Of a stretch of DNA of 42,406 bases, positions 917 through 32,817 are shown piece after piece. The notes beneath the pieces were generated by a model, which was not told the DNA's origin, did no database searches, and saw only the letters and a list, made by a program, of their open reading frames with translations. A program made the translations under genes and the position numbers. Each line of letters begins with the position of its first letter. The first letter of the stretch is position 1. Source of the stretch: an uncultured Thermoanaerobaculia bacterium (GTDB lineage: Bacteria; Acidobacteriota; Thermoanaerobaculia; Thermoanaerobaculales; Thermoanaerobaculaceae); NCBI GenBank assembly GCA_964594125.1, contig CAZQLL010000032.1, positions 1-42,406 of the forward strand. The letters run 5' to 3'.

Positions 917-969
917 CCGCCCGCGGACCATTCCCCCGCACTGGAGTTGCACACTGTAGGCGCTCACTC

Positions 970-997
970 TTGCAATCTGGGAATTGAATCCCATAAT
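970..997 (+). promoter_or_regulatory. sigma70-like promoter TTGCAA-N16-CATAAT, 6 nt before the ATG at 1004 (leaderless)
   Basis: Read directly: ttgcaa at 970-975, cataat at 992-997, in a locally AT-rich patch of a 70% GC region. No SD before the start. Confidence 0.4.
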
Positions 998-1003
998 GCA
1001 AGC

Positions 1004-2168: not shown

Positions 2169-3362
2169 TCACCAGGCCGTGGCTTGGTCGTCCAGAAGGC
2201 TGGCGATACCCGACCACGGCACGACACGGATGTCCCGCTGCAGGCGGGCCTCGTCGCCCCCGTAGACCACGGCCCGGTCGAGGCGGCGCACACCGGGGGG
2301 CAGGGTGATCCGGCGAGGCAGCGTCTCCAGAGCAGCGAAGAAGTCGGTGGCAACGGTCTTGCCGGACTTGACCTCGAGGGCGAGCCAGCGCTCGCCGTCG
2401 GCCACCACGACGTCCACCTCGTAGCCCTTGTGGTCCCTGAGGAAGTGGAGGTCGTGTCGCAGCCCGCGGTGGGCGCGCCATTTGAGGATCTCGCTCACGA
2501 CCCAGCTCTCGAAGATCGCGCCGCGCAGGGGGTGCTCGCGAAGTTGCTCGGGGCGCCGGATCCCGAGCAGGAAGCAGAGGAGACCGGTGTCGTGGAAGTA
2601 GAGCTTGGGCGTCTTGACCAGGCGCGTGCCGATGTTGGCGTGGTAGGGGTGCAGGCGGAAGGTGAGGAAGCTCGTCTCCAGCACCGAAAGCCACGCACGC
2701 GCCGTGTTGTGGGTGATGCCGCAGTCGGCGCCCAGCGAGGAGAGGTTGAGCAGTTGCCCGACCCGGCCGGCGCACATCCGAAGGAAAGCCTGGAACGCCT
2801 CGAGGTCGCCGATGTTGAGAAGGAGCCTGGCGTCGCGCTCGACGTAGGTAGCCACGTAGGCGCCGAGCCAGTCATCCGCCGGCACACCGCGATCGAAAAT
2901 CGCCGGGTAGCCGCCCGTCCACACCGTCGCCAGCAGGTCGAGCGGTGCCCCCGGGAACAGCCGCAGCTCGTCAAGGCTGCACGAAAAGAGGTGCAGGACG
3001 GCGGTACGGCCCGCCAGCGACTGGCTGATCGTCTCCAGGAGCGCGAGGTTGGCCGAGCCGGTGAGGACGAACCTGCCCGGGCGCGGGTCGGCATCCACCT
3101 CGCCCTGCATGTAGGAGAGCAGGTCGGGAGCTCGCTGCACCTCGTCGATGACCGCACCGCCGCGGAGCGAATCGAAAAAGCCGCGCGGGTCCGAGCGTGC
3201 GAATGAGCGGATGTCCGGGACCTCCAGACTGACGTAGCGGTGCTCGGGGAAGACGGTACGGCACAGCGTGGTCTTGCCGGACTGCCGAGGACCCGTGACC
3301 GTCACCACCGGGAAGTACTGCGCCAGCCGGGCCACCTGTTCACCGAGCGTACGTGCAATCAC
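2169..3362 (-). CDS. AAA+ ATPase with DUF4143 domain, paralog of 1004..2146, convergent with it
   Basis: Walker A GPRQSGKTTLCR; Walker B AVIDEVQ. The N-terminus VIARTLGEQVARLAQYFPVVTVTGPRQSGKT aligns with MIERVHRRQVEDRLKRFPAVALIGPRQCGKT of the paralog. Start placed at GTG 3360-3362; the track extends to TTG at 3398. Confidence 0.8.
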   Translation of the reverse strand: MIARTLGEQVARLAQYFPVVTVTGPRQSGKTTLCRTVFPEHRYVSLEVPDIRSFARSDPRGFFDSLRGGAVIDEVQRAPDLLSYMQGEVDADPRPGRFVLTGSANLALLETISQSLAGRTAVLHLFSCSLDELRLFPGAPLDLLATVWTGGYPAIFDRGVPADDWLGAYVATYVERDARLLLNIGDLEAFQAFLRMCAGRVGQLLNLSSLGADCGITHNTARAWLSVLETSFLTFRLHPYHANIGTRLVKTPKLYFHDTGLLCFLLGIRRPEQLREHPLRGAIFESWVVSEILKWRAHRGLRHDLHFLRDHKGYEVDVVVADGERWLALEVKSGKTVATDFFAALETLPRRITLPPGVRRLDRAVVYGGDEARLQRDIRVVPWSGIASLLDDQATAW

Positions 3363-3368
3363 ACTATG

Positions 3369-3398
3369 AGGATAGGCTGCATCGGTACAATCTGTCAA
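3369..3398 (-). promoter_or_regulatory. sigma70-like promoter TTGACA-N18-TATCCT, 6 nt before the GTG start (leaderless)
   Basis: Minus-strand reading: ttgaca (plus 3393-3398), 18-nt spacer, tatcct (plus 3369-3374). Lies in an AT-rich islet at 3360-3430. Confidence 0.4.
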
Positions 3399-3595: not shown

Positions 3596-4498
3596 TTGCC
3601 CATGCCCTGGCGACTGCCGGACTTCACCTCGTACCTGCGCGACGAGCGCAACCTGTCGGCGCACACGCTGCGGGCGTACGAGCGCGAGGTGGCGGCGTTC
3701 GTGGAGTTCGCTTGCGGAGAGATGGGGCTCGGCAAGCCGCGCGAGGTGACGCCGGCGACGGTGCGGGCGTATCTGGCGCAGCTCCACTCGCGGCGGCTCG
3801 CCAAGGTGTCGGTGCAGCGGGCGCTGGCGGCGCTGCGCACGTACATGCGCTTCCTCGGCCGCGAGGGCGTGGTCGAGGCCAACCCGGCGCGCGTGGTGCC
3901 GACGCCGCGGGCGCCGAAGCCGCTGCCCGAGGTGGTCGGCGCGCCCGACGTCGCCGAGCTGCTCGACGCGCTCCCCGCCACCTCGGCGGGGCGGCGCGAC
4001 CGCGCCGCGCTCGAGCTGCTGTACGCGGCCGGCCTGCGGGTGAGCGAGCTGGTCGGCCTCGACCTCGACGACGTCGACCTGTCGCGGCGGCTGGTGCGGG
4101 TGCTCGGCAAGGGGAACAAGGAGCGGGTGGTGCCGTTCGGAAAGAAGGCCGAAGCAGCGATCCGCAGCTACCTGCCGGACCGCGCCGCCTGGCGCCACCA
4201 GGGAAAGGTGTCCGACGGCGAGGAGCCGCTGCTCGTCAACCAGCGCGGCACGCGTCTGTCGGACCGCTCGCTGCGCCGCATCCTCGACGCCGCCGTGCAC
4301 CATTGCGCACTCGTTCACAAGCTTCACCCGCACGCGCTGCGCCACGCCTTCGCCACCCACCTGCTCGAGGCGGGGATGGACCTGCGGGCGATCCAGGAGC
4401 TGCTCGGCCACACCTCGCTGTCCACCACCCAGCGCTACACCCACCTCGACCTCGCCCACCTCATGGAGACCTACCGCAAGGCGCACCCGAAGGCGTGA
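3596..4498 (+). CDS. xerC: Tyrosine site-specific recombinase, XerC/XerD family
   Basis: N-terminal SAM-like domain (YLRDERNLSAHTLRAYEREV). Catalytic C-terminus HALRHAFATHLLEAGMDLRAIQELLGHTSLSTTQRYTHL with R..H..R..Y. No phage or att context nearby. Confidence 0.8.
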   Translation: MPMPWRLPDFTSYLRDERNLSAHTLRAYEREVAAFVEFACGEMGLGKPREVTPATVRAYLAQLHSRRLAKVSVQRALAALRTYMRFLGREGVVEANPARVVPTPRAPKPLPEVVGAPDVAELLDALPATSAGRRDRAALELLYAAGLRVSELVGLDLDDVDLSRRLVRVLGKGNKERVVPFGKKAEAAIRSYLPDRAAWRHQGKVSDGEEPLLVNQRGTRLSDRSLRRILDAAVHHCALVHKLHPHALRHAFATHLLEAGMDLRAIQELLGHTSLSTTQRYTHLDLAHLMETYRKAHPKA

Positions 4499-4665: not shown

Positions 4666-5703
4666 GTGGTGACCAACGCCGAGCTCGCCGACGCGCTGTT
4701 CGCGCTCGCCGAGAGCCAGCCGCCGGGGGACGAGCGGGTGGGGCTGCTGCGGGCGGCCTACGCCGTGTTCGACCACCCGCGGGAGCTGGCGGGGTCGCGC
4801 CGGCTGCCGGAGTCGGTGCCGCTCGAGGCGCTGCCGACGGTGCAGATGCTGAAAGGGGCGGCCGGCGCCGACGCGCTCGCCGCCGTCGTGCAGCGCCTCG
4901 CCGGGCCGCACGCGATCCGCGGCCGGGCGACGCGCGAGGGGTTCCTGTCGGCGGCATTCGCGGCGCAGGTGGTGGACGGGGCGCCCGACCTCGACCCGCG
5001 CCAGCTCCGCGGCGCCGTCCACTGGCACACCCGCGCCTCCGACGGCGCCGCCCCGCTCGAGGTGATGGCGCGTACCTGCCAGCGCCGCGGCGCGTCGTGG
5101 GCGATCGTCGCCGACCACACGCGCGGCCTGGCCTGCGTCAACGGCCTCGACGGCGAGGGGATCGCGCTGCAGCGACGGGCCGTGGCGGCGTGGAACCGCC
5201 GGCACGCCGAGGACCTGACGCTGCTGCAGGGCCTCGAGGTCGAGATCCTCGAGGACGGCACCCTCGACCTGCCGCGGCCCGAACGCGCCGGCGTCGTCCT
5301 CATCGCCGCCGTCCACACCGGCCTCGCCGACCGCCACGACCAGACCCCGCGCCTGCTGCGCGCGCTCGACGAACCGGGCGTGTGGGCGCTCGCCCACCCG
5401 CAGGGGCGGCTGTTCAACCGCCGCGCCGGCGTGCGCGCCAACTGGGAGGTGGTGTTTCGCGCCGCCGCCGAGCGCGGGGTGCTGCTCGAGGTCAACGGCT
5501 TCCCGCGCCGCCAGGACCTCGACCCGACGCTGCTGGCGCTCGCGCGCGAGGCCGGCTGCTCGTTTCTCCTCGCCTCCGATGCGCACCACCCGCGCCACCT
5601 GGCGTTCGACGCCACCGCCGTCGCGCTCGCCGCGGTGGCCGGCGTGCCGCGCGAGCGCATCGTCAACTTCGCGAAGCGCGACGACCTCGAGATCACCGAG
5701 TAG
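4666..5703 (+). CDS. PHP-domain phosphoesterase (PolX C-terminal-like, no polymerase domain)
   Basis: His/Asp PHP motifs HWHTRASDG, ADHT, ASDAHHPRHL. GTG start at 4666; an in-frame TAG at 4651 rules out a longer N-terminus. Confidence 0.7.
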   Translation: MVTNAELADALFALAESQPPGDERVGLLRAAYAVFDHPRELAGSRRLPESVPLEALPTVQMLKGAAGADALAAVVQRLAGPHAIRGRATREGFLSAAFAAQVVDGAPDLDPRQLRGAVHWHTRASDGAAPLEVMARTCQRRGASWAIVADHTRGLACVNGLDGEGIALQRRAVAAWNRRHAEDLTLLQGLEVEILEDGTLDLPRPERAGVVLIAAVHTGLADRHDQTPRLLRALDEPGVWALAHPQGRLFNRRAGVRANWEVVFRAAAERGVLLEVNGFPRRQDLDPTLLALAREAGCSFLLASDAHHPRHLAFDATAVALAAVAGVPRERIVNFAKRDDLEITE

Positions 5704-10104: not shown

Positions 10105-12141
10105 CTAGCGGGCGTGCACCTTGGTGACCGCGAACTCGGCGCCCTCGCCGTGGCACGAGGCGCAGGCCTCGGCGAACGGCGCGTTGTTGACGTACGCGTG
10201 CGCCGCGGCGTCGACGCTGCCGTGGCAGGACAGGCAGCTCGCGGCACCCGGCGCCATCGGCGTGTACCAGTCGCGCGGCGTCGGCGTTCCGAGCACGCCG
10301 CTCGGCAGCGGCAGGTCGTACGTGCCGGGGTTGTGGCATGCCTCGCAGTTGCGGCGGTCGCCGGGATAGAGGACCTCGTTGTAGTTGTGCGGCGTGTTGC
10401 CGAAGCCGTACACCGTATACTCGAGCTCCAGTTCCTCGCCGGTGTGGATCTTGTGGATCATGTATTTCATGTGGACCGACTCGGCGGGCATCTTGTCGGC
10501 GGGGCGGCGCGAGCGGTCGTTCTCGTTCGGGTGGTGGCAGATGATGCACTCCTCGACCTTGAAGCGCTGGCCGCCGTGCAGCGCCAGCGTGTTGTGGCAG
10601 TCGTTGCACTTGGCAAGGTCGACCACGGCGCGGCGTGCGACCGGCTGCGCGTCGGTGATCGCGACGTGGAAGATGGGGTTCATGGCCGCCTCGCGGATCG
10701 CCGCCGCCGGGCCGGGGTTGAGCGTCACGTTGCGGTAGACGTCGGCCGAGAGCGTCCACGTGCCGCTGGCGTCGGCGGGGATGGCGTTGGCGAACGCGCA
10801 GCTCCAGGCGTCGCCGCTCGCCACCGCGAGAGACCTGCAATCCTGCCGGAAGTAGCTCGCGTACTCCGTCGTCGGGCCACCGAACAGGAAGTTCAGGCTG
10901 TTCAGCGAGGACGGAGCAACGAGCGAGCCGTCGCCGTTGTTGAGCTTGAAGAGCACCGTCGGCTTGCCGCCCGGGACCGCGCCGCTCACGCTCAGGATTT
11001 CGATCTTGAGGCCCTTGAGCTGCGCCGACTTGGTCGGGATGGTGTGGGCGCCCTTGATCGAGGCGTCGAACTCGAACTCGCCCTGCGGCTGGTGGCAGAA
11101 GCGGCAGGCGTCATCGTCGGACATCGGGCCGGCGACGTGGTTCTCGCCGGTCTCCCAGTTCACCGCGTCGTGGCAGGAACCGCACGCCTGGCGCGACGGG
11201 TTGGTGTACCAGATGTGCCCCTCGGGCGACGAGGCCACGTGACAGGTGGTGCAGTTGCGCACATCCTGCGGGTACGTGACGTGCGAGTAGTCGTGCACGG
11301 CGCCGCCGAACCCGATGATCGTGTACCCCTTGGTGAGGTTGGGGCCGAAGTGGATCTTGTGCGTCATCTCGGCCATCTGCACGTTGTTGCCGGTGTCGGG
11401 GTCGACCGACTGCGTCTGGTTGTGGCACAGCACGCAGAGCTTGACCTCCTGGCGTGAGCCGCCGTGCAACGCCAGCGGGTCGTGGCAGGTGTTGCATGTT
11501 GCGGTCGCCACGGCGTCCCACTTTTCGGTCACCGCAGCGCCGTCCGGGCGGAAGTCGTGCAGGAGGTTCTCGTAGTAGTTCTTGCCGATGATCGCGGTGA
11601 GGTTGCGCGTCGCGTAGATGCCGAGGGTGGTGGTCTTTGTCTGGTCGAAGCCCGCCGGCAACGCTGTACCGAAACGGTACCGGTAGGTGCCCAGCGTGAC
11701 CTCGGTCCACGCGCCGCCCGAGTCGGCGGTCGCCTGCACGGCCGACTTGCCTGTGATCGAGCTCGAGACGGTCCGCTTGGTGTACGCCACGTAATCCCGG
11801 TTCGCCGCGTCGTACCACGCGAGCACGAACGACGCCGAGATCGCGCCGGGTGTCACCTGCCCGAGGCGGTCGAGCGGCTGGTTCATGTCGTCGGTGAACC
11901 TGACCTCGGCGACCGGGCGGCGGTCGGCGGGGATCTGGAAGCTCACCAGCGTGATGTTGAACCCCGGCCGAATGTACGCGGTCTGCTGCGTGCTGAGGTA
12001 CGCCTCCATCTGGTGGGCGGTGTACAGCGCCGCCGGCTGCGAGCGCAGCGGCTGCCTCACCGACCCCACCGGCGGATGCGACGGCAGCGTCCCCGCGGCC
12101 GCCGCAGACACCAGAACGATGCCAAGACTGTGCATCACCAT
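10105..12141 (-). CDS. Outer decahaem c-type cytochrome with MtrC/OmcA-like four-domain layout
   Basis: 10 CXXCH arranged as: about 210 aa haem-free N-terminal domain, 5 haems, a haem-free domain containing a CX12C pair (CRSLAVASGDAWSC), then 5 haems. N-terminal signal has no lipobox cysteine. Confidence 0.75.
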   Translation of the reverse strand: MVMHSLGIVLVSAAAAGTLPSHPPVGSVRQPLRSQPAALYTAHQMEAYLSTQQTAYIRPGFNITLVSFQIPADRRPVAEVRFTDDMNQPLDRLGQVTPGAISASFVLAWYDAANRDYVAYTKRTVSSSITGKSAVQATADSGGAWTEVTLGTYRYRFGTALPAGFDQTKTTTLGIYATRNLTAIIGKNYYENLLHDFRPDGAAVTEKWDAVATATCNTCHDPLALHGGSRQEVKLCVLCHNQTQSVDPDTGNNVQMAEMTHKIHFGPNLTKGYTIIGFGGAVHDYSHVTYPQDVRNCTTCHVASSPEGHIWYTNPSRQACGSCHDAVNWETGENHVAGPMSDDDACRFCHQPQGEFEFDASIKGAHTIPTKSAQLKGLKIEILSVSGAVPGGKPTVLFKLNNGDGSLVAPSSLNSLNFLFGGPTTEYASYFRQDCRSLAVASGDAWSCAFANAIPADASGTWTLSADVYRNVTLNPGPAAAIREAAMNPIFHVAITDAQPVARRAVVDLAKCNDCHNTLALHGGQRFKVEECIICHHPNENDRSRRPADKMPAESVHMKYMIHKIHTGEELELEYTVYGFGNTPHNYNEVLYPGDRRNCEACHNPGTYDLPLPSGVLGTPTPRDWYTPMAPGAASCLSCHGSVDAAAHAYVNNAPFAEACASCHGEGAEFAVTKVHAR

Positions 12142-14611: not shown

Positions 14612-15697
14612 CTACCTCCAGGGGCCGCGGACGCCGATCTGAAGCTGCAGCGTGAAGTCGGGGTTGACGCCGTCGGGGATCAGGTTCTCGCCGAGGGCGC
14701 CGGCGAGGTACACGGTGTCGGAAAGCCAGCGGCGGGCGCCGAAGGTGAACATGAACGCGGGCTTCCCCGGCTCGCCGCCCGAGAAGGAGGCCAGCGGCGA
14801 AGTGTCCCAGCGGACCCCGGCGAGCCAGTCGCCGCGTACGCCCCACGGCTGGCGGTACTCGGCGGCGAGGTGCCAGGTGTCGTCGCGCGCGGCGCCGAGG
14901 AACGAGCCGCCGCGGTCGAGGCGCGTGTAGCCGGCCGCCGCGCGCAGCGCGCCGCGTCCGAGGCCCCAGGCGCCGAGCCAGCGCACGCCGACGTCCCAGC
15001 CGCCGCTGCCGCCGATCGTGCCCTCGTCGCCGGTCGGCGCCTCCACGGCAGCGATCCACCGGTGCTCGCCACCCCACGCCGCGCCGAGCCGTCCCGAGAG
15101 CGCGAGCCGGACGTCGCCGACGCCGGACCCCTCGATCTCGTCCCATCGCTCGATCGCACGCCCCTCCTGCGGGTTCCAGACATAGGCGAGCGTCTGCGAG
15201 TGGGCGAACACCTCGCGTCCGCCGACGCCCCATCCTAGGGTCTCGTGAATCTCCTCCGAGATCGCGTCCCAGTGCGGTGAGCCGATCTCGACCCACGGGA
15301 CGGACACGGTCAGCGTCACGCCGTGGCCGAGACCGCGCGCGAAGCGCAGCTCGGCGACCACGCCCTCGACGTCGAAGCGGTGGATGTCGTCGCCGGGGTG
15401 GCGCTGCTCGAGGATGCGCAGCTCCTCCGGGACCAGCGGCTCGCCTTCGAGCCCGAGCTCCTGGTGGATGGTGGCGGTGTGCCAGCTCCCGGACCACAGG
15501 TTGAAGTAGCCGGGGGTGACGGTGAGCTCCCACTCGCCGCCGGCGAGGTCGCGGCCTTCCGCGAGCTCCATCGGCAGCGAGGCCAGCCGCAGCGGCTCCA
15601 CGTACGGGGCGTCCCACGGCCGGACCGTCTGGGCAGAGAGCGGCCGGATCACGACCGCAGCGGCCGCGAGCGCGAATGCTGTGAGGACACGCTTCAT
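14612..15697 (-). CDS. Secreted beta-rich protein of unknown function (DUF3187-like?), paralog A
   Basis: Signal peptide MKRVLTAFALAAAAVVIRPLSA. Shares blocks with 21496..22569 (VPWVEIGSPHWD, APTGDEGTIGGSGGWDVGVRW, RDDTWHLA, SPLAS). ATG start. Confidence 0.7.
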   Translation of the reverse strand: MKRVLTAFALAAAAVVIRPLSAQTVRPWDAPYVEPLRLASLPMELAEGRDLAGGEWELTVTPGYFNLWSGSWHTATIHQELGLEGEPLVPEELRILEQRHPGDDIHRFDVEGVVAELRFARGLGHGVTLTVSVPWVEIGSPHWDAISEEIHETLGWGVGGREVFAHSQTLAYVWNPQEGRAIERWDEIEGSGVGDVRLALSGRLGAAWGGEHRWIAAVEAPTGDEGTIGGSGGWDVGVRWLGAWGLGRGALRAAAGYTRLDRGGSFLGAARDDTWHLAAEYRQPWGVRGDWLAGVRWDTSPLASFSGGEPGKPAFMFTFGARRWLSDTVYLAGALGENLIPDGVNPDFTLQLQIGVRGPWR

Positions 15698-20473: not shown

Positions 20474-21499
20474 TCAGTCGCGCACGACGTCGAGGCGGAG
20501 CACCACGCCCGGGCCGCCGAGGTCGGAGAACCAGTGGACGTGCTCGTCGACCATGTCGACGTGGACGGCGTAGCTGCCGGCGCCGTCCGGGGCGCGGAAG
20601 CGCAGCTCGAAGGTGCGCTCCCCCCCCGCCGCGACCTCGCCGTCCTCGACGCCGGCGCGGGCGAGGTCGTGCGCCCGGCCGTCGTTGCGCCGGAACTCCG
20701 CCACCGGGTCGGCCGGCCAGGCGGCGAGCGGGCCGAGCGCGCGGGCGCCGAGGCGGATGCCGCGTTGCCGGTCGGAGGACAGCCTCCACGGCTGCTGCGA
20801 GCGGTTGACCACGCGCACCGGCAGCACCATGCCCTCACCCGGCCGCACGCGCGCCGGCGCCTCGCCCCCGAGCGCGATGCCGGCGTCGTACGGCGGCGGG
20901 CAGTACGCCGCGAGGAGCCACTGCCGGAACGCCGCGGCGTCGTGCGAGCGGCCGACGCGCCGCCGCCAGGACTCGTACTCCGCGAAGAAGCGGTGGAGCG
21001 GGCAGGCGTCGGGCCGGCACAGGTGGCCGGCGGCCGGCGCCAGCCACGCGAGCGCCGCGTCGAGCGGCGCGCCGGCGAGCGCGAGCGCCACCCCGGCGCC
21101 CCACCCACTGCGGTCGAAGCCGTCTTTGCAGTGCAGCAGCAGCGGGCGCGGCAGCGCGTCGAGCAGCGCCACGAAGCGCCGCACCTCGTGCTGCGGCGGC
21201 CAGTCGTCGAGCTTGATGCGGACGTCGGCGCGCTGGACGCCGAGCTCGCGGCAGGCCGCCACCTCGTCGGCGTACCAGCGCTCGCTCGGGCGCGACCCGC
21301 GCAGGTTCACCACCGCGCGCACGCCGCGTTGCTCCACGACCTCGCGCCACTCCTCCGCCTCCGGCTGCCCGGCGACGAGCAGGCCGGGAGCGGCCTCGAC
21401 CACGCGTACCGGCCCGTGGTAGCGCGCCCGCGCGGCGAGCAGCAGCGCGGCGAGCACGGCGAGGCCGGCCGCCGCCGCGAGCCACCACCGCCGGCTCAC
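20474..21499 (-). CDS. Cys-based phosphatase (PTP/DUSP-like) with TM anchor
   Basis: P-loop HCKDGFDRSG (CX5R). The GTG start overlaps the paralog B stop (GTGA). TM segment WWLAAAAGLAVLAALLLAA. Confidence 0.6.
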   Translation of the reverse strand: MSRRWWLAAAAGLAVLAALLLAARARYHGPVRVVEAAPGLLVAGQPEAEEWREVVEQRGVRAVVNLRGSRPSERWYADEVAACRELGVQRADVRIKLDDWPPQHEVRRFVALLDALPRPLLLHCKDGFDRSGWGAGVALALAGAPLDAALAWLAPAAGHLCRPDACPLHRFFAEYESWRRRVGRSHDAAAFRQWLLAAYCPPPYDAGIALGGEAPARVRPGEGMVLPVRVVNRSQQPWRLSSDRQRGIRLGARALGPLAAWPADPVAEFRRNDGRAHDLARAGVEDGEVAAGGERTFELRFRAPDGAGSYAVHVDMVDEHVHWFSDLGGPGVVLRLDVVRD

Positions 21500-22569
21500 G
21501 GGCGCACACCCCCGCCGCTGCCGAACGTCAGACGGAACCCGTAGTCGGGCGAGACCCCGGTGCCGTACCAGTCCTGGCCGGTCTCGAGGGCGATCCACGA
21601 GCCGCGCGACAGGTGCGTGACCACGCCCAGCCTGAGGTACGCCGCCGGGTCGCCGAGGGCGGCGGCGGAGAGAGAGGCGAGGGGCGAGCTCTCGTAGGCG
21701 GCGGAGCCGGTGACCCCCCACCCCTTCCCGAGGTCCTGCTCGAGCGACACCGCCAGATGCCAGGTGTCGTCGCGCTCGACGCCGAGCAGGTCACCGGCGT
21801 CATCGAGCCAGGTGTAGCCGGCGCCTGCGACCAGCGACGTGGTGCGCCACCGCCACGCGGCGAACCAACGGACGCCGACGTCCCACCCGCCGGAACCGAG
21901 CAGCGTATCGGCGTCGCCGGTGGGGGCGTCGAGGCTGAGCACGGCCCGGTGCTCGGCGCCCGCGAACCTCCCCGCCGGCGCGGCGAGCGAGACCGTGACG
22001 TCGCCGAGGCCGGACACGACGAGTTCGTCGCGCAGCTCGAGCGTCGAGCCGGGGGTGTGCGCGTAAAAGAACGTCTCGCCGCGCGGGAACAGGTCGCGGT
22101 CGGCGTTGGGGAACGAGAACGCCTCGTGCCACCATTCCGCGATGCCGTCCCAGTGCGGCCGGCCGACCTCGATCCAGGGCACCTGGAGGGAAAGCACGAG
22201 GCCGTGCGCGAGCCCGCGCTGGACGACGAGGTCCGCGCGCCACGACTCGATGTCCACGTGGTACATGTCGTTCGTGGGGTAGCGCGCCTCGATCTCGCGC
22301 AGCTCGTCGGCGCCGACCGGCTCGCCGGCGCGCCCGTACTCCTGGTGGATCGCCGGGATCTCCCACGTCCCCTGCCAGAGGTTGGCGTAGGCGAACGACG
22401 CCTCGACGCGCCAGGCGCCGGCGGCCACCGGCGCCGCCGGGGCGAGGTCGAGCGGCAGGCTGGCGGCGCGCAGCGGGTCCGGCGTCGCGGCGAGACGGAA
22501 CGGAATCGTCTCGGCGGCGGCCGCCGCGGCGAGCAGCAGGGCAGCGAAGGCGAGGCGGGCTCGGCGCAC
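21496..22569 (-). CDS. Secreted beta-rich protein of unknown function, paralog B of 14612..15697
   Basis: Signal peptide MRRARLAFAALLLAAAAAAE. Conserved blocks shared with paralog A. GTG start. Confidence 0.7.
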   Translation of the reverse strand: MRRARLAFAALLLAAAAAAETIPFRLAATPDPLRAASLPLDLAPAAPVAAGAWRVEASFAYANLWQGTWEIPAIHQEYGRAGEPVGADELREIEARYPTNDMYHVDIESWRADLVVQRGLAHGLVLSLQVPWIEVGRPHWDGIAEWWHEAFSFPNADRDLFPRGETFFYAHTPGSTLELRDELVVSGLGDVTVSLAAPAGRFAGAEHRAVLSLDAPTGDADTLLGSGGWDVGVRWFAAWRWRTTSLVAGAGYTWLDDAGDLLGVERDDTWHLAVSLEQDLGKGWGVTGSAAYESSPLASLSAAALGDPAAYLRLGVVTHLSRGSWIALETGQDWYGTGVSPDYGFRLTFGSGGGVRP

Positions 22570-27040: not shown

Positions 27041-28315
27041 CTACGGCGCAACCGTCTCGCCGTCGCGCACGAACGCGCGGCCGAGCTGCACGAGGTCGAG
27101 GCCGGGGTACACCAGGCAGTTGGTGCCGATCACCGCGCGCGGCGGGATCACCGCCTGCTTGCCGATCACCGTGATGCCGGAGTCGAGGTGGGTGGGGAAG
27201 CGGCGGTTGGCGATCGCCGCGTCGCCGTGGCCGATGATCGCGCCGGCGCCGAGCGTCACCCCCTTGTCGAGGATCGTCTCCTCGATCGAGCAGCCGTCGC
27301 CGAGCACGCAGTCCTGCATCACCACCGAGCGGCGGATGCAGGCGCCCGGGCCGACGCGGACGCCGGGGAAGATCACGCTCTCGGTGACGCTGCCCTCGAT
27401 CACGCAGCCGCGGGCGACAAGGGCGTTGCTGACGACGGCGCGCGGTCCGAAGCGCACGGGCGGCCGGTCGCCGAGCCCCTTCTCGTCCGGGCCGGTGCAG
27501 ATGTTCCAGCTCGGCAGGTCGAGGCCGGAGGCCGGGTCGAGGCAGTCCATGTTGGCGTCGAGGTAAGAGGAAAGCGTGCCGACGTCGCGCCAGTACCCCG
27601 CGAACGGGTAGCACAGCAGCGTGCGCCGGCCGACCATCCCCGGGATGATGTCCTTGCCGAAGTCGAACCCCTGCTTCGTGCCTACGACCGCGCGCAGCTC
27701 CTCGACGAGCACCTCGTAGTCGAAGACGTAGATCCCCATCGACGCGAGGTTGGAGGCGGCGTTTCTCTCCTTCTCCTGGAACTGCGTGATCAGGCCGTTC
27801 CCGTCCGTAACCATGATGCCGAAACGGTGGGTCTCCTCCCACGGCACCTGCATCGCGGCGATCGTCAGCGCCGCGCCCGCGCGCTCGTGCGCCGCGATCA
27901 TCGCCTCGTAGTCCATGCGGTAGACGTGGTCGCCGGAGAGGATCAGCACCCGCTGCGGCCTGTAGTCCTCCATGAACCAGAGGTTCTGCCAGATCGCGTC
28001 GGCGGTGCCCTTGTACCAGTCGGAGTCGTGCTCGCCGGTGTGCGGCGGCAGGATCTTGATCCCGCGCTCGCGCCCCGACAGGTCCCACGGCTCGCCGCCG
28101 CGCACGTGGTCCATCAGCGACGACGGCTTGTACTGCGTCAGCAGGCCGACCCGCTCGAGCCCCGAGTGCATCACGTTGGAGAGCGTGAAGTCGATGATGC
28201 GGTAGGCGCCGCCGAACGGCACCGCCGGCTTGGCGCGCCGCGAGGCGAGGATGTTGAGGCGGCTGCCGACGCCGCCGGCGAGCAGCATCACCAAAGTGTC
28301 GCGCGCCGACCTCAT
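27041..28315 (-). CDS. glgC: Glucose-1-phosphate adenylyltransferase
   Basis: LAGGVGSRL...RAKPAVPFGG..YRIIDF; WYKGTADA; C-terminal left-handed beta-helix repeats. ATG at 28315. Confidence 0.9.
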   Translation of the reverse strand: MRSARDTLVMLLAGGVGSRLNILASRRAKPAVPFGGAYRIIDFTLSNVMHSGLERVGLLTQYKPSSLMDHVRGGEPWDLSGRERGIKILPPHTGEHDSDWYKGTADAIWQNLWFMEDYRPQRVLILSGDHVYRMDYEAMIAAHERAGAALTIAAMQVPWEETHRFGIMVTDGNGLITQFQEKERNAASNLASMGIYVFDYEVLVEELRAVVGTKQGFDFGKDIIPGMVGRRTLLCYPFAGYWRDVGTLSSYLDANMDCLDPASGLDLPSWNICTGPDEKGLGDRPPVRFGPRAVVSNALVARGCVIEGSVTESVIFPGVRVGPGACIRRSVVMQDCVLGDGCSIEETILDKGVTLGAGAIIGHGDAAIANRRFPTHLDSGITVIGKQAVIPPRAVIGTNCLVYPGLDLVQLGRAFVRDGETVAP

Positions 28316-29577
28316 GCCGTCACCGTGCTTCCCGCCGCCACTCGCGCCGGCCAGCGGCCCGGCGGCAGGCCGGCCGCCACCAGACAGCCGCGGCCGATCG
28401 CCATGCCGTCCGGCACCCGCGTCCCCTTGCCGATCACCGTCGCGCCGCAGGAGAGAGAGCGCGGCAGGGTGCCGTTCGGCGCCGCCTCGCCGTCGCCGAC
28501 GAGCGCGCCGGCGCCCACCACCACGCCCTTGTCGAGGATCGCGCGGTCGACCACGGCGCCCGCCGCCACCCGGCAGCCATGCATCAGCACCGAGTCGCGA
28601 ACCACCGCGCCGCGCTCGACCGCCACCCCGGGGGAGAGGATGGAGCGCTCGACCGTGCCCTCGATCGTTGCGCCCGCCCCCACCAGCGACGACACACAGC
28701 GCGAGCCCGGGCGCAGCAGCGCCGGCGGCGGGTCGCCGAGCGTGCCCGCGCGCAGGTTGGTGCGCACCTGCCAGCGCTCGAAGTCGGGGGGATCCTCGCC
28801 GATCGCGTCGATGTTGGCGGCGTAGTAGGCGTCGAGCGTGCGCGCGTACGCCCAGTAGCCGTCGAAGACATGGCCGTACACGCGCGCACCCTCGCGCACC
28901 ATGCGCGGGATCACCTCGCTGTAGAGGTGGAACCCGGTGCTCTCCGCCTGGTTCTCGCGCACCCGCGCGACGAGCGTGCGGGTGTCGAACACGTAGATCG
29001 TCAGCGAGGCGAGGTCGCTCTCCGGCTCGGGCGCCTTCTCCTGGTAGCCGACGATGCGGCCGTCGCCGTCGAGCGTGGCGGTGCCGAACTGGTGCGCCTT
29101 CTCGCGCGGCACCCGCTTGAGCGCGATCGTCAACTCGGCCCGGTTCGCGACGTGGGCGCGGATCATCGGGCGGTAGTCCATCGAGTAGATGTGGTCGCCG
29201 GCGGCGACCAGCACCATCTCCGGGCCGTAGTGCTCGATGAAGTTCAAGTTCTGGTAGATCGCATCCGCGGTGCCCTTGTACCAGTCGGAGTCGGAGAGCC
29301 CCTGGAACGGGGAGAGCACCTTGAGCTCGCGCGTGCGGCCGACGTAGTCCCACGGCTCGCCGCCGCCGAGGTGGGTCTGCAGCGAGTACGGGCGGTACTG
29401 CGACAGCACGCCGACCACCTCGATGCGCGAGTGCATCATGTTGGAGAGCACGAAGTCGATGATGCGGTACATCCCCCAGAAGGGGACTGCGCTCTTCGGC
29501 CGCTGCGCGGTGAGCACCGAGAGCTCGTCGACGCGCCCCCCCGCCAGCACCATCCCGACGATCTGTTTCTTCATCAA
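28312..29577 (-). CDS. glgD: GlgC paralog lacking the catalytic GGxGxR motif (GlgD-like regulatory subunit)
   Basis: Homologous to glgC throughout, but the N-terminus reads LAGGRVDEL instead of LAGGVGSRL. ATGA overlap with glgC. Confidence 0.75.
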   Translation of the reverse strand: MMKKQIVGMVLAGGRVDELSVLTAQRPKSAVPFWGMYRIIDFVLSNMMHSRIEVVGVLSQYRPYSLQTHLGGGEPWDYVGRTRELKVLSPFQGLSDSDWYKGTADAIYQNLNFIEHYGPEMVLVAAGDHIYSMDYRPMIRAHVANRAELTIALKRVPREKAHQFGTATLDGDGRIVGYQEKAPEPESDLASLTIYVFDTRTLVARVRENQAESTGFHLYSEVIPRMVREGARVYGHVFDGYWAYARTLDAYYAANIDAIGEDPPDFERWQVRTNLRAGTLGDPPPALLRPGSRCVSSLVGAGATIEGTVERSILSPGVAVERGAVVRDSVLMHGCRVAAGAVVDRAILDKGVVVGAGALVGDGEAAPNGTLPRSLSCGATVIGKGTRVPDGMAIGRGCLVAAGLPPGRWPARVAAGSTVTA

Positions 29578-29759
29578 GGCGATGCTATCAGAATCCCCAT
29601 GAGATGGCGCTTAGCCGCGATGGAGATTCCGAGCTCTCGCATGCCGACTCTCTTGAGCCCAAACTCCCGCGCTTGCTGACAGAGCCGTGTCGCAGGGTCG
29701 CCTCGCGTCTTGACAAGCCCCCCAATCTGCGATCCTCCCCAACAAGCAAGGAGGCCCAG

Positions 29760-30119
29760 ATGCGGACGATGCGAGTCAGGAAGACCCACAGACTGCTACT
29801 TGCTGGCTTAATAGCGCTCGTCTTGGGGACTCTTCCAGGGGCGATCCAGGCGAACGCTCCAATCAACATCGACTGCGAACCTCCTTCGTGGTGCCCATTT
29901 GACAATTGGTTCTGCTGGATGTTCGCAGAGTGCCACACGGTGGGTGGAGGCGGAGGCGGCGCCACGGACCCGACCCGTTTGTGCAGGGAGTGCATGCAGT
30001 GGTGCGAGGACCAATACGCGGTATGCAGGGGTGCGGCGGAGGGCATTGCTGGCTACGAGAGCTGCGAGGTTGCCTTGGAAAGCTGCGAGACGAGCTGCGT
30101 TTCAGACTTCAACTGCTAG
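29760..30119 (+). CDS. Secreted Cys/Trp-rich mini-protein with a Gly6 linker
   Basis: Perfect SD aaggagg 5 nt before the ATG. Signal peptide MRTMRVRKTHRLLLAGLIALVLGTLPGAIQA. Mature part is about 88 aa with 12 Cys. Lower-GC codon usage. The track start at 29604 is less likely. Confidence 0.6.
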   Translation: MRTMRVRKTHRLLLAGLIALVLGTLPGAIQANAPINIDCEPPSWCPFDNWFCWMFAECHTVGGGGGGATDPTRLCRECMQWCEDQYAVCRGAAEGIAGYESCEVALESCETSCVSDFNC

Positions 30120-30136
30120 AGTAGCAAGGAAGACCA

Positions 30137-30997
30137 GTGAGAAGCTCCGTCATACGCGTGGTTTTGCTGGTGCTCTGGCTCACCGCCTTGTCGGTGTCCT
30201 CTGGTGCAACGGATGTGCCGCGCGAGACGCGCGTCCACTGGACGATGCTTGATTCGATTGAGAGACTACCCGCGGAAAAGCAGCGCGAGCTCCGTTCCGC
30301 AACGGAGATCCCACAGATCACGATCATCCGGAGGAGTGAGTTCCCGTTGATCACGAAGGCCAATCCGCCGGCGGCCGGGGAAGCGATTCGGAGGTCGAAA
30401 ATCGTACTTGTCAATCCTGCATCTCAGGGTATACGGTTCTCGTGGGCGGAGAAGCGCGACTTCGAGAAAGGCAGGGCGGACTACGCTCTCCTCGTTTACT
30501 ATCCCACGCTGGTGCGGGACGAGATCCGTCTGTCCGTGGAGTACCCCATTCTCGGGCGGGACTTCGACTCTTACTTTGCAGCAGCGGCAGAGGCTCGCCG
30601 CAAGGGGTCCCTTGCTGCCGACGGTCAGCTCCTGGTGACCGTCGACTACTCGGGACGAAAGTGGATGCTGACGGTCGAAGATTGGCGACGCGGCCTCTTC
30701 TCGAGCGAGGACAAGGAGTGGCTCAAAGCTGCCGTCGACGGACGACTCAAGACCGCTCTCAACCTTGTTCTTACCGCCGGGTTTGGTCTGCCTGAGCTGC
30801 AGATGGCCTGCGAGTTGGTTGCCCTCCCGATGTTGGGTGACTACGAGCGGTCGTTCAGGTCTGCCGACGAGCTCATCAGGCCACGGGGCAAGCCGGACTG
30901 CGACTTCGACGCGTGGTTCGGCGAGCCATGCTCGTTGGAGCAGCAGATGGAGTTCAAGGTCAGGAAGAACCCGCAGGTGGCCCCTCCAGCGCCCTAG
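30137..30997 (+). CDS. Secreted hypothetical protein (286 aa) co-operonic with the Cys-rich protein
   Basis: GTG start 17 nt after the upstream stop; SD aaggaag. Signal peptide VRSSVIRVVLLVLWLTALSVSSGA. Lower GC than the surroundings. Confidence 0.6.
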   Translation: MRSSVIRVVLLVLWLTALSVSSGATDVPRETRVHWTMLDSIERLPAEKQRELRSATEIPQITIIRRSEFPLITKANPPAAGEAIRRSKIVLVNPASQGIRFSWAEKRDFEKGRADYALLVYYPTLVRDEIRLSVEYPILGRDFDSYFAAAAEARRKGSLAADGQLLVTVDYSGRKWMLTVEDWRRGLFSSEDKEWLKAAVDGRLKTALNLVLTAGFGLPELQMACELVALPMLGDYERSFRSADELIRPRGKPDCDFDAWFGEPCSLEQQMEFKVRKNPQVAPPAP

Positions 30998-31183
30998 CAG
31001 GGACGCTGGCGCCACTGTCGGCGGGGCGAGATCCCGTGCGGTGTAGCTAGCTTTCGCCGGGTGCAGCCTGTCACTGGTCGCAGGTGCGCCGGCAGTTTCG
31101 GGTCAGGCCTGTCGTCTTGCCTCATCGGCAGGGGTGGGTTGCCCGCACGTCGGCTCGACAGCGCCCAGATGCGGAATTGCGCA

Positions 31184-31300
31184 AACCCAGCGGTACATCC
31201 CCCAGAACGGCACCGCGCTCCTCGGCCGCTGCGCGGTGAGCACCGACAGCTCGTCGACCCGTCCGCCCGCCAGCACCATCCCGACGATCTGTTTCCTCAT
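31184..31300 (-). pseudogene. Relic of the glgD 5' end (first about 38 codons), a degenerate duplicate of 29461..29577
   Basis: About 90% nucleotide identity to the glgD start. The 65-aa ORF MRKQIVGMVLAGGRVDELSVLTAQRPRSAVPFWGMYR then diverges. Confidence 0.7.
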
Positions 31301-31528
31301 TGGCTCGATCCTAGCGGCGCGGCGGAGGGGGTGTCAATCGAGCTCGCGGTGGGCGAGGCCGGGCTGACGCTGCGCCGCGACTGTCACCCGCCAACCCCAA
31401 GCCGGCGCCTTCGCGGGTCGCGATAACGGCCTGCCGGGCTCAGGAGGCCTCGGTCGGGACGGCACCGGAGCGATCGAGCTCTCCCATCGCCATTGCGTCT
31501 CGCCCAGGAGTGTCGTACATTGTCTTAC

Positions 31529-31747
31529 ATGAGCGACACCCTGACCATCCGTCTCGACGGTGAGCTGGCGTCCAGGCTTGCGGCGGCGGCACGCGCTTCC
31601 GGCCGCACCCGCAGCGAGGTGGCGCGGGACGCGTTGCGTCGCCAGTTGGCGATCGTGCTCTTCGACCAACTGCGCTCGCGCGTGATGCCGTTCGCCGAGG
31701 CGCGGGGGCTGCTCACCGACGAGGACGTGTTCCGGCTCGTCTCGTGA
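31529..31747 (+). CDS. vapB: Ribbon-helix-helix antitoxin (VapB/CopG-like)
   Basis: MSDTLTIRLDGELASRLAAAARASGRTRSEVARDALRRQL. Its stop overlaps the vapC start (GTGA). A direct repeat TGTCGTACAT/TGTCTTACAT sits at the start codon. Confidence 0.75.
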   Translation: MSDTLTIRLDGELASRLAAAARASGRTRSEVARDALRRQLAIVLFDQLRSRVMPFAEARGLLTDEDVFRLVS

Positions 31748-32154
31748 AGGTCTTTCCCGACACGAACGTACTCGTCGCCGCGTTCGCGACGCGCGGCCTG
31801 TGCGCGGACCTGCTCCGGATCGTACTGGCCGAGCACGAGCTGGTGCTGGGGCAGGTTGTTCTCGTCGAGCTCGAGCGCGTGATGCGCGTGAGGCTCCGCG
31901 TCCCAGAGGCTGTGATCTCCGCCGCCCTCGATCTCCTGCGCGAGTTCCCGGTGGCCGCGGCGACCGGGCCGCTGCCGCGAATCCGCTGTCGCGACAAGGA
32001 CGACCTTGCCGTGCTCGCCTGCGCTCTCGCCGCGGACGCCGAGGTTCTCGTGACCGGCGACCGCGATCTCCTCGTGCTCGCCGGGAAGACGGGCATCCGC
32101 ATCGTCGATCCGCGGGAGCTGTGGACCCTGCTGCGAGGGGAAGCCGGGAGCTGA
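31744..32154 (+). CDS. vapC: PIN-domain toxin
   Basis: FPDTNVLV...D..D..LA.A....LVTGDRDL, with conserved acidic residues. Confidence 0.8.
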   Translation: MKVFPDTNVLVAAFATRGLCADLLRIVLAEHELVLGQVVLVELERVMRVRLRVPEAVISAALDLLREFPVAAATGPLPRIRCRDKDDLAVLACALAADAEVLVTGDRDLLVLAGKTGIRIVDPRELWTLLRGEAGS

Positions 32155-32158
32155 TGCG

Positions 32159-32620
32159 ATGGGCGGGGCGAGGAGCACTGGCAGGCGCAGCTCCCGATCG
32201 GCGCGGGTGCACGGCGAGGTGCAGGGGCGGGCGGGCAGCGTGTTTGCGGCGGTACACGCGCTGGTGCGGGCGATCCCGCGCGGGCGGGTGATGACCTACG
32301 GGCAGATCTCGGTGCTGCTCGGCAGCCGCATCTCGCCGGCGGCGGTGGGGTGGGCGATGCACGGCAGCCCCGCCGACGTGCCGTGGCACCGCGTCGTCAA
32401 CGCCGCGGGAGGCTGCTCGACCGACCGCATGCCCGACATCCCGCCGGGAACGCAGCGCGCTCTGCTGCAGGCCGAGGGGGTCGAGTTCCGCCTCGACGGC
32501 ACCATCGAGGTCGAGCGGTACCGATGGTCGCCTGCGTCGGCGGCAGGCGCGAGTCGTCGAGCGTCCTGCAGCCGTCCCGGGGTTCGTCCTCGGGGTTCGC
32601 CCTCCTCGGAAACCCCGTGA
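32159..32620 (+). CDS. Alkyltransferase-like protein (ATL, YbaZ/Atl1-type; MGMT fold with Trp replacing the acceptor Cys)
   Basis: VMTYGQIS...PWHRVVNAAG...ERYRW; PWHRV in place of PCHRV. ATG 4 nt after the vapC stop, with SD gggag. Confidence 0.8.
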   Translation: MGGARSTGRRSSRSARVHGEVQGRAGSVFAAVHALVRAIPRGRVMTYGQISVLLGSRISPAAVGWAMHGSPADVPWHRVVNAAGGCSTDRMPDIPPGTQRALLQAEGVEFRLDGTIEVERYRWSPASAAGASRRASCSRPGVRPRGSPSSETP

Positions 32621-32753: not shown

Positions 32754-32817
32754 GATGACACGGTGGCGGCTTCCCGGAGCGACTGGATGACACGGTGGCG
32801 GCTGGCCGGAGCGACTG
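32754..32817 (+). repeat. 32-bp tandem duplication (two units, two mismatches)
   Basis: gatgacacggtggcggcttcccggagcgactg / gatgacacggtggcggctggccggagcgactg. Lies in the convergent ATL/mobBA intergenic region. Confidence 0.6.

Follow-up and report, generated by a model that had tools for sequence, protein, structure and literature searches.

Structure and composition of the locus

We analyzed a 42,406-nt stretch of DNA (hereafter the window; contig CAZQLL010000032.1 of assembly GCA_964594125.1) from an uncultured Thermoanaerobaculia bacterium. An original prediction, made from the letters of the window without database searches, had pointed to a low-GC cassette of two genes for secreted proteins, a Cys/Trp-rich mini-protein (gene 1) and a larger partner (gene 2), and had taken the change in codon usage as a sign of horizontal acquisition. 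The features of the locus are collected in Table 1. The whole window is 100% identical to a 93-kb JGI (Joint Genome Institute) metagenome contig and to a Logan contig of SRR12686701.

Table 1. The cassette, its genes and the flanking sequences (positions in the window; SD, Shine-Dalgarno sequence)
Feature	Coordinates	Strand	Remarks
Intact GlgC/GlgD-like nucleotidyltransferase gene, 421 aa	28312..29577	-	PF00483, 1e-39; host gene, outside the cassette
Left direct repeat R1	29464..29592	-	Codons 1-37 of the intact GlgD-like gene and ~15 nt upstream, with a TAGCAT -10-like hexamer
Low-GC island	29593..31186		Two genes, gene 1 and gene 2
Left non-coding cassette end	29593..29759	+	TTGACA at 29710-29715; SD aaggagg at 29748-29754; read from the sequence
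Gene 1, 119-aa precursor	29760..30119	+	ATG at 29760, stop at 30117-30119; SD aaggagg at 29748-29754
Gene 1, variable Cys/Trp head	29874..29933	+	C39-C58
Gene 1, Gly6 run	29943..29960	+	Residues 62-67
Gene 1, Cys-ladder helical hairpin (predicted)	29982..30116	+	C75-C119
Gene 2, 286 aa	30137..30997	+	GTG start at 30137, 17 nt after the gene 1 stop
Gene 2, C-terminal loop	30893..30931	+	P253-C265, PDCDFDAWFGEPC
Right non-coding cassette end	30998..31186	+	Read from the sequence
Right direct repeat R2, orphan GlgD-like 5′ fragment	31187..31318	-	ATG at 31300, codons 1-37, native upstream DNA attached
Promoter-like site TTGACA-18-TAGGAT	31308..31337	-	Directly upstream of the orphan fragment

In 400-nt intervals covering positions 29400-31000 the GC content is 0.60-0.63, versus 0.69-0.79 on both sides. 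GC content at third codon positions (GC3) is 0.73 in gene 1 and 0.77 in gene 2, versus 0.93 ± 0.03 (minimum 0.87) in 17 neighbouring genes. At homologous loci from other assemblies (designated below by L numbers) the cassette had GC content of 0.57 versus 0.70 in the flanks (L002), 0.63 versus 0.68 (L003) and 0.64 versus 0.69 (L001); wherever both flanks extended over more than a few hundred bases, GC of the cassette was below that of at least one of them.

One could argue that the low GC merely reflects the amino acid composition of two native, vertically inherited genes and that no transfer took place. Richness in Cys, Trp, Phe, Asn and Glu does lower GC at the first and second codon positions (0.53 at the first position of gene 1), and the closest relative, L006, has ~97 nt of downstream flank in common with the window. 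Still, GC3 does not depend on amino acid content, a duplicated fragment of a host gene brackets the island, the neighbourhood differs in every other lineage, and the pair is present in only one of the 185,579 species representatives of GTDB (L009, an uncultured Thermoanaerobaculia bacterium). We rejected this explanation on the grounds of GC3, the bracketing repeat and the differing neighbourhoods, and consider it highly improbable. Thus, atypical codon usage, lower GC, duplicated host-gene fragments on both sides, lineage-specific contexts and very patchy distribution together give good support to the horizontal acquisition of the cassette. On both counts, the low-GC two-gene cassette and its foreign origin, the original prediction agrees with our results.

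The non-coding ends of the cassette carry few recognizable signals. TTGACA or TTGACT is located ~45-60 nt 5′ of gene 1 in five of the seven loci compared; a consensus scan did not call a full promoter at the TTGACA of the window, where the -10 element is poor. The right non-coding end loosely resembles that of L006 alone (for the downstream flank of L006 we relied on blastn, since MAFFT did not align it reliably) and has no match in Rfam; Rfam and tRNA scans returned nothing. According to Pfam lists, no gene for a radical-SAM enzyme, an integrase or a transposase is situated within ±10 kb of the cassette.

Protein products of gene 1 and gene 2

The gene 1 precursor begins with a signal peptide (residues 1-31; signal peptides were judged by inspection, not by a predictor) made of the n-region MRTMRVRKTHR, the 14-residue h-region LLLAGLIALVLGTL and a cleavage site between AIQA and NA. 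This layout, with basic n-region, h-region and AxA site, is conserved in the family. The mature protein has 88 aa, including 12 Cys and 4 Trp, pI (isoelectric point) of 4.05 and net charge of -11; all proteins of the family are acidic, with pI of 4.0-4.7 and net charges from -4 to -18.

In an alignment of eleven mature sequences (A10) the conserved part of the protein is the C-terminal module, with CxxCxxxC in helix 1 and CxxxCx5C in helix 2. Six Cys residues are the same in all sequences, the last one lying at the C-terminus or within three residues of it. The AlphaFold2 (AF2) model of this module is an antiparallel helical hairpin with helices at residues 71-92 and 95-117 (pLDDT 82-86). Since the distances of the Cys residues from the loop are symmetric, a nested ladder of disulfides is predicted: C75-C119, C78-C113 and C82-C109, together with C89-C102. 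This fourth pair exists in two states, either YxxC with ESC (window, L006, L016, L019 and L022) or a loop-closing C-x4-9-C (L002, L001, L008, L007, L009 and L024, and additionally L019). It always switches on both helices together, which is what a disulfide predicts. Cx10C pairs are present in some members.

The N-terminal half of the mature protein is much less uniform. A run of at least four Gly (or a Gly-rich stretch, in L009) precedes the hairpin in 9 of the 11 sequences and is missing in L007 and L016. The head in front of it is a four-Cys/Trp knot in the group of the window, CPFWWQIPVYSC in L016, CPCPDCPW in L019, YYPCFDCSF in L022 and the Cys-free DDWDAENMWFD in L024. For C39, C45, C52 and C58 in the head of the window protein two disulfides are predicted. 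Judging from the alignment, the head is short and fast evolving and the C-terminal hairpin is the conserved core. The original prediction had described two Cys modules joined by a Gly hinge; this division is correct, while only the C-terminal module and, for the most part, the Gly run are conserved, the Cys/Trp head being variable.

Hairpins with two nested disulfides are known in eukaryotes, in CHCH/twin-CxnC proteins and in plant alpha-hairpinins. The gene 1 proteins resemble them in the predicted antiparallel helix-loop-helix with nested interhelical disulfides but differ in having three invariant pairs and a mobile one, in being bacterial and in carrying a Sec signal. We detected no homology of gene 1 to either group.

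Gene 2 was annotated by JGI with a start 21 nt further downstream. Its product has an N-terminal hydrophobic signal of ~24 residues, leaving a mature protein of ~260 aa. The motif ExRxH at the mature N-terminus is near-invariant in alignment A6. Over 32 members of the family the invariant positions are W183 and the C-terminal loop D-C255-x-F-D-A-x-F-G-x-P-C265; closer relatives have a KNPQVAPP tail. In the AF2 model (pLDDT 74, pTM 0.72) an eight-to-nine-strand antiparallel sheet is followed by a helical domain. Several statements of the original prediction on the two products thus stand: the perfect aaggagg SD and Sec signal of gene 1, the counts of 12 Cys and 4 Trp, and the location of gene 2 17 nt after gene 1 with its product secreted.

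We also saw that giant LPXTG surface proteins with Rib repeats match the gene 2 profile at columns ~81-163 (residues ~87-165 of the window protein), in up to 14 stretches per protein and with E-values down to 8e-35. The hhalign probability of this match is 4%, and the scores look repeat-inflated; a small doubt is left by 30% identity over 60 columns with the common motif G-x-x-F-x-W … V-x-Y-P. We did not accept Rib-domain proteins as relatives of gene 2; the match may be due to repeat inflation or to a distant common beta-hairpin motif.

Distribution and conservation of the gene pair

Neither gene 1 nor gene 2 matched sequence profiles from Pfam, NCBIfam, PHROGs, PADLOC or PDB; for these collections the remark of the original prediction that neither protein is recognizable holds. 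A word-indexed search of 5.8 billion clusters returned seven relatives of gene 2 and, for gene 1, only gene 1 itself. An exhaustive HMMER search with gene 2 against 1.84 billion representatives gave 72 matches at E<=1e-3, six of which are repeat-inflated Rib proteins; the others are ~90-330 aa long, the shortest being fragments. The gene 2 family comprises ~65 clusters. None of the relatives is on a viral contig or on a plasmid. All 10 gene 2 relatives tested lack a Pfam domain, and those named in their source are labeled ‘hypothetical protein’. Relatives of gene 1 emerged only when the DNA ahead of gene 2 homologues was inspected and an alignment search was made afterwards.

Gene 1 followed by gene 2 at a distance of 1-40 nt was found in 11 lineages: the window; L006; L002; L001; L003/L008/L010/L011; L007; L009/L013; L016; L019; L022/L023; and L024/L025. 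The neighbourhoods are unrelated. They include genes for an EAL response regulator, DegV and MlaEFD, cysteine synthase and AhpC, serine dehydratase and a dehydrogenase, an esterase, rubrerythrin and KdsB, and an integrase (of phage type, 2.4 kb upstream of the pair in L024).

The gene 2 proteins of the window and of L006 are 71% identical. Between these two loci gene 2 has a dN/dS ratio of 0.28 and the hairpin part of gene 1 a ratio of 0.27, indicating purifying selection on both genes. The possibility raised in the original prediction, that the open reading frames might lack conservation, did not materialize: the pair is kept in 11 lineages, its Cys residues are invariant and dN/dS is ~0.28. 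We conclude that these are genuine genes forming a conserved pair, that both products carry export signals and that the Cys pattern and its co-variation hold. Judged from these searches, gene 1 and gene 2 represent two rare, previously undescribed protein families whose members occur nearly always together.

Exceptions to the complete pair were observed in several loci. Upstream of gene 2 in L014 gene 1 was not found. In L001, L003/L011 and L006 gene 1 is frameshifted, with the downstream hairpin frame and gene 2 intact. The shifts are situated in or beside the G-rich DNA of the Gly linker (L001 9780-9860; L003 2160-2200, same in L011; L006 270-360). L003 and L011, which come from two data sources, have the same 1-nt deletion in GGC GGC, and the ~97% identical allele of L008 is intact; in L001 a G6 run contains an extra G, and L006 has two compensating shifts. 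These frameshifts could be due to pseudogenization, phase variation or assembly errors.

Duplication of host coding sequences at the insertion sites

The original prediction had missed that the island is enclosed by a 124-nt direct repeat with 88% identity (29464-29587 and 31190-31313, spacing 1726), observed in repeat search, gapped alignment and blastn; the end coordinate it gave for the cassette, 31186, is exactly the last base ahead of the right copy. R1 and R2 in Table 1 are the copies of this repeat extended by a few matching bases per end. The 1726-nt unit holds gene 1 and gene 2 only. In the gapped alignment R1 and R2 have nine coding differences, seven synonymous and two K>R. The intact GlgC/GlgD-like gene scores 321-346 bits with NCBIfam glgC models, under their equivalog cut-offs, and has GC3 of 0.96.

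The promoter-like site next to R2 is the sole sigma-70-type match in 29400-31600 (10/12 positions; shuffled sequences average 0.2 matches). It is presumed to be the original promoter of the GlgD-like gene, now cut off from the intact gene. With the only such site upstream of the orphan fragment, the insert appears to have separated the GlgD-like gene from its original -35 element.

Similar structures were found at two other sites. In L009 the pair is located between 179-nt repeats with 97% identity and spacing of 1901 (2814-2992 and 4715-4893), derived from the 3′-end of the neighbouring gene of the isocitrate/isopropylmalate-dehydrogenase family. In L014 and L015, assemblies 100% identical over 8.8 kb, a 329-nt repeat with 95% identity flanks the gene 2 homologue (L014 2815-3143 and 4868-5196) and comes from inside an FAD-oxidoreductase gene; the two copies in L014 have 16 nucleotide differences, 11 of them synonymous (11:5). 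The mostly synonymous differences (7:2 in the window, 11:5 in L014) imply that both copies evolved as working genes. This divergence is consistent with one copy having come in together with the cassette from a related lineage, rather than with recent duplication in place and subsequent decay. No recombinase gene is in, or adjoins, the 1.7-2.1 kb inserts of the window, L009 and L014.

A recombination event would have brought the cassette in and duplicated codons 1-37 of the adjacent GlgD-like gene; the gene stayed intact on one side of the insert, and the orphan 5′ fragment on the other side kept the original promoter. The simplest route would be Campbell-type (insertion-duplication) recombination or homology-facilitated illegitimate recombination (HFIR, as defined in PMC3240628), with the incoming piece of DNA made of the cassette and a fragment of the GlgD-like gene of a related strain. 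We infer this route from its likeness to the structures observed: neither process needs an enzyme encoded by the element, both join a foreign segment to a homologous anchor, and the presence of a donor and a recipient copy of the anchor would explain the 3-12% mostly synonymous divergence of the repeats. Insertion-duplication and HFIR have been described mainly from laboratory transformation and conjugation, and a circular or linear intermediate is hypothetical here. To our knowledge, repeated natural capture of one cassette family by insertion-duplication has not been described.

Several facts weigh against such a scenario. Flanking duplications were seen in only 3 of ~12 lineages; such repeats were not found in L001, L002, L008, L016, L022 and L024. 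No relative with an empty site was found, a look-up of the neighbouring PIN protein giving the same genome only. Finally, the L014 repeat comes from inside a host gene and lies between gene 2 and another Cys-rich gene of low GC, a layout that needs an extra deletion or rearrangement under either insertion model, the one outlined above or the one considered next.

The latter model makes the cassette a recombinase-less remnant or satellite of the kind of a cis-mobilizable element (CIME), inserted by site-specific tyrosine integrases, with an attP that carries a replacement for the end of the target gene. Phage 21 and e14 integrate in icd of E. coli in this way, replacing the gene end, and their repeats differ mainly at synonymous sites. 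As in these elements and in CIME derivatives, the direct repeats at our loci are a duplicated end of a protein gene with mainly synonymous differences, and the target is left intact; the L009 target, the 3′-end of an isocitrate/isopropylmalate-dehydrogenase-family gene, and the phage-type integrase of L024 also point in this direction. What makes the model rather unlikely is that the repeats of the window, L009 and L014 have no integrase gene between them or nearby, that three different targets would need three different integrases, that the L014 repeat is inside a gene and not at its end, and that mismatches are spread along the repeat with no identical core flanked by diverged arms. The inserts also differ from phage 21, e14 and CIMEs in having just one or two cargo genes within 1.7-2.1 kb.

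Other kinds of mobile elements were considered as well. An insertion sequence or transposon was rejected: there is no transposase, the cassette copies have no inverted repeat in common, and the duplications are 124-329 nt rather than 2-15 bp. Apart from the TTGACA -35 hexamer, neither inverted repeats nor att-like cores nor conserved termini were found in the cassette copies. With regard to integrons, whose gene cassettes are typically promoterless, unlike the cassette of the window with its own -35 element, we observed no conserved or palindromic element common to the regions downstream of gene 2 (no dedicated attC model was used) and no IntI nearby. Of the attributes of a site-specific integrative element, direct repeats derived from the target gene are present at both ends, and a tyrosine or serine recombinase was not found inside the 1726-nt unit.

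Three observations concern these loci and the recombinases of the window. The second low-GC gene of L014 (5508-5951, minus strand; GC 0.57-0.61) codes for a 147-aa Cys-rich protein with CxxCxxxC, an eight-glycine run (GGGSGGGGGGGG) and the C-terminal sequence CNPIPVCPAWCANC, the high-GC orphan repeat lying between this gene and gene 2; the protein appears to be related to gene 1, with its parts rearranged or permuted. The flank common to the window and L006, ~97 nt at 31341-31436 in the window and 1501-1597 in L006 (78% identical), is downstream of the cassette in both; in the window the orphan fragment is situated between gene 2 and this stretch, and L006 has no orphan fragment. The explanation is either deletion of the orphan in L006 or a difference between the two insertions. 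The only tyrosine recombinase gene of the window, XerC/D-like (3596-4498, plus strand), is 25 kb from the cassette and adjoins two divergent genes for DUF4143/AAA_14 ATPases (947-2146, plus strand, and 2169-3398, minus strand).

Possible functions of the pair

We tentatively favour the reading that gene 1 codes for a bacteriocin-like effector and gene 2 for a periplasmic immunity or partner protein, though its probability stays short of even. Both Sec-exported proteins would act together outside the cytoplasm. The core of the gene 1 protein would be an antiparallel alpha-hairpin stapled by three invariant disulfides and a shifting one, a stable scaffold that the Gly run would link flexibly to the fast-evolving aromatic/Cys head; this variable head would serve as warhead or receptor-binding part. 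The DCxFDAxFGxPC loop of gene 2 is the likeliest docking site for the hairpin. The disulfide pairing, the physical complex and the roles of toxin and immunity protein are what we infer from the features described above.

Several lines of evidence suggest this reading. The cassette is a mobile, rare and patchy unit with its own -35 element and with both products exported. A hyper-stable scaffold with a hypervariable tethered head is combined in one small protein. Furthermore, gene 1 is broken with gene 2 intact in three lineages, and gene 2 is alone in L014. As a compact mobile two-gene unit, with a gene for an exported effector followed by a gene for a periplasmic protein, the cassette is similar to pairs of a bacteriocin and a periplasmic immunity protein, e.g. 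colicin M-like proteins with Cmi; in such pairs, too, the gene of the effector often disappears with its partner retained, and the distribution among strains is patchy. Periplasmic immunity proteins are described for bacteriocins (PMC4661593), and so are orphan immunity genes (PMC12546727), which the retention of gene 2 with no intact gene 1 resembles.

A number of considerations count against a bacteriocin-like role. In Pfam, NCBIfam, PHROGs, PADLOC and PDB we found no likeness of the pair to any known toxin, immunity, bacteriocin or defence family, nor any cytotoxic, translocation or receptor domain or microcin signature, as would be typical for colicins, pyocins and microcins. Their strong acidity and polar hairpin set the gene 1 proteins apart from most membrane-active peptides. 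Immunity proteins usually diversify with their toxins, and yet what gene 2 conserves best is an invariant motif. Genes for export, lysis or receptors do not accompany the pair. Also, the frameshifts of gene 1 could be assembly errors (the L001 contig has a long-read-style name and L006 is a Logan contig). In comparison with colicin, pyocin and microcin pairs, then, homology is missing, the candidate effector is an acidic Sec-exported protein of ~88 aa with six predicted disulfides, the candidate immunity protein, with its invariant motif, has three times that size, and there is no lysis or export gene.

A different type of antagonism would reverse the roles, with gene 2 coding for a secreted enzyme or effector and gene 1 for its tight-binding acidic inhibitor, a periplasmic analog of barstar or Im proteins. 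The gene 1 protein is small, acidic, rigid and disulfide-rich, as are many secreted enzyme inhibitors, the two genes are tightly linked, and polar motifs are conserved in gene 2 near the mature N-terminus (ExRxH) and at the C-terminus (DCDFD). Still, we consider this quite improbable: several lineages have intact gene 2 with gene 1 frameshifted or absent, which should be harmful if gene 2 were toxic to its producer, gene 2 revealed neither a catalytic fold nor a known hydrolase motif, and in the wider family only W183, C255, F257, D258 and C265 are invariant.

The 12 Cys residues of gene 1 bring up two more explanations. The protein could be a periplasmic metal or thiol buffer, e.g. for Cu(I), Zn or Cd, with Cys thiolates at the helix interface and gene 2 as an accessory. 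The four-helix bundle with a Cys-lined core and the sequence similarity characteristic of Csp/Ccsp copper storage proteins were not found, and we give such a role a small probability. Alternatively, gene 1 could be the precursor of a ribosomally synthesized and post-translationally modified peptide (RiPP), its Cys cross-linked by an unlinked maturase; the CxxCxxxC spacing does recall the cores of sactipeptides and ranthipeptides. We rejected this as extremely improbable: no radical-SAM or other maturase is encoded within ±10 kb or among the called genes of the other loci read, the leader is by inspection of Sec type and not a RiPP leader, the ~45-aa hairpin is predicted to fold alone, and the Cys residues vary in pairs. 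The original prediction had likewise noted the lack of an adjacent maturase and preferred a disulfide-rich protein to a RiPP.

It is also conceivable, yet unlikely, that the pair is a periplasmic complex with no part in antagonism, where gene 2 is a half-barrel carrier of a hydrophobic ligand, e.g. a lipid, and gene 1 is a stapled-hairpin subunit that stabilizes or regulates it. In the mitochondrial lipid-transfer heterodimer Ups1/PRELI-Mdm35/TRIAP1, Ups1 is a half barrel of seven strands that needs the disulfide-stapled hairpin Mdm35 for its stability (PMC4532887). Among the top 50 Foldseek matches of the gene 2 model ten were chains of Ups1-Mdm35 or PRELID3b-TRIAP1, and other top-50 matches include lipid-binding barrels; none of these matches is significant. 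The architectures are alike, a small disulfide-stapled alpha-hairpin with a larger protein of antiparallel sheet plus helix, and the compartment of Ups1-Mdm35, the mitochondrial intermembrane space, is oxidizing and topologically equivalent to the periplasm. On the other hand, hhalign comparisons were negative, with probabilities of 0.2% for A6 (gene 2) versus Ups1 and 0.1% for A10 (gene 1) versus Mdm35 (the queries being 100% identical to the chains of PDB 4xhr). Gene 1 has CxxCxxxC and CxxxCx5C with three or four Cys pairs, in place of the twin Cx9C with two pairs of Mdm35, as well as an extra Gly run and head, and the pair is mobile and dispensable. We therefore rejected homology to Ups1-Mdm35 and speak of an architectural analogy only.

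In its boldest form this idea makes the pair a periplasmic counterpart of Ups1/PRELI-Mdm35/TRIAP1, by convergence or from very deep ancestry, with the head used for targeting or gating and the cassette spreading by insertion-duplication with no recombinase. The half-barrel of gene 2 would then be functional only when embraced by the gene 1 hairpin. We regard this as very unlikely.

The neighbours of two cassettes are of interest in this regard (L002 4494-7199; L022 1768-2364 and 7102-7854). In L002 the cassette is just upstream of the MlaE-MlaF-MlaD phospholipid-transport genes, and L022 has LolA and KdsB-like genes near the cassette. This vicinity may bear on the role of a lipid carrier, and it may be a coincidence.

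Other features of the window

The GlgC/GlgD-like gene next to the cassette is one of two tandem GlgC-like nucleotidyltransferase paralogues on the minus strand (27041-28315 and 28312-29577) with a 4-nt overlap. Both are under the NCBIfam glgC equivalog cut-offs, and they may form a heteromer of GlgC/GlgD type.

On the other side of the cassette a pair of genes for an RHH antitoxin and a PIN toxin (31520-31747 and 31744-32154, plus strand) is followed by a gene (32159-32620, plus strand) coding for only the DNA-binding domain of an O6-alkylguanine transferase, with PWHRV for PCHRV (alkyltransferase-like, ATL type). GC3 of these three genes, 0.87-0.88, is slightly under that of other neighbouring genes. 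A 32-nt tandem duplication with 94% identity (32754-32817; GATGACACGGTGGCGGCTTCCCGGAGCGACTG, two copies) is located between the ATL-like and MobA/MobB genes. Elsewhere in the window we observed a gene for an MtrC/MtrF-like multihaem outer-membrane cytochrome (10105-12141, minus strand; PF22113, 9e-49), which hints at extracellular electron transfer, and two genes for DUF3187 proteins (14612-15697 and 21496-22569).

Significance

The cassette is a new, rare and conserved two-gene exported module built from two previously undescribed families, so far annotated as hypothetical proteins only. Its hosts are poorly studied, uncultured, high-GC bacteria, one of them represented by a metagenome-assembled genome of Thermoanaerobaculia.

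At three unrelated sites 124-329 nt of host coding sequence are duplicated around the insert, and neither the insert nor the adjoining DNA carries a recombinase gene. This suggests a way for very small cargo cassettes to pass from one genome to a related one and leave the target gene undamaged. Such insertions would escape mobile-element finders keyed to integrases and transposases.

If the pair is an antagonism module, it would represent a new class of small, hyper-stable, disulfide-laddered exported effectors with a dedicated periplasmic partner. A scaffold in which a Gly tether joins a conserved stapled hairpin to an exchangeable head would also suit protein engineering.

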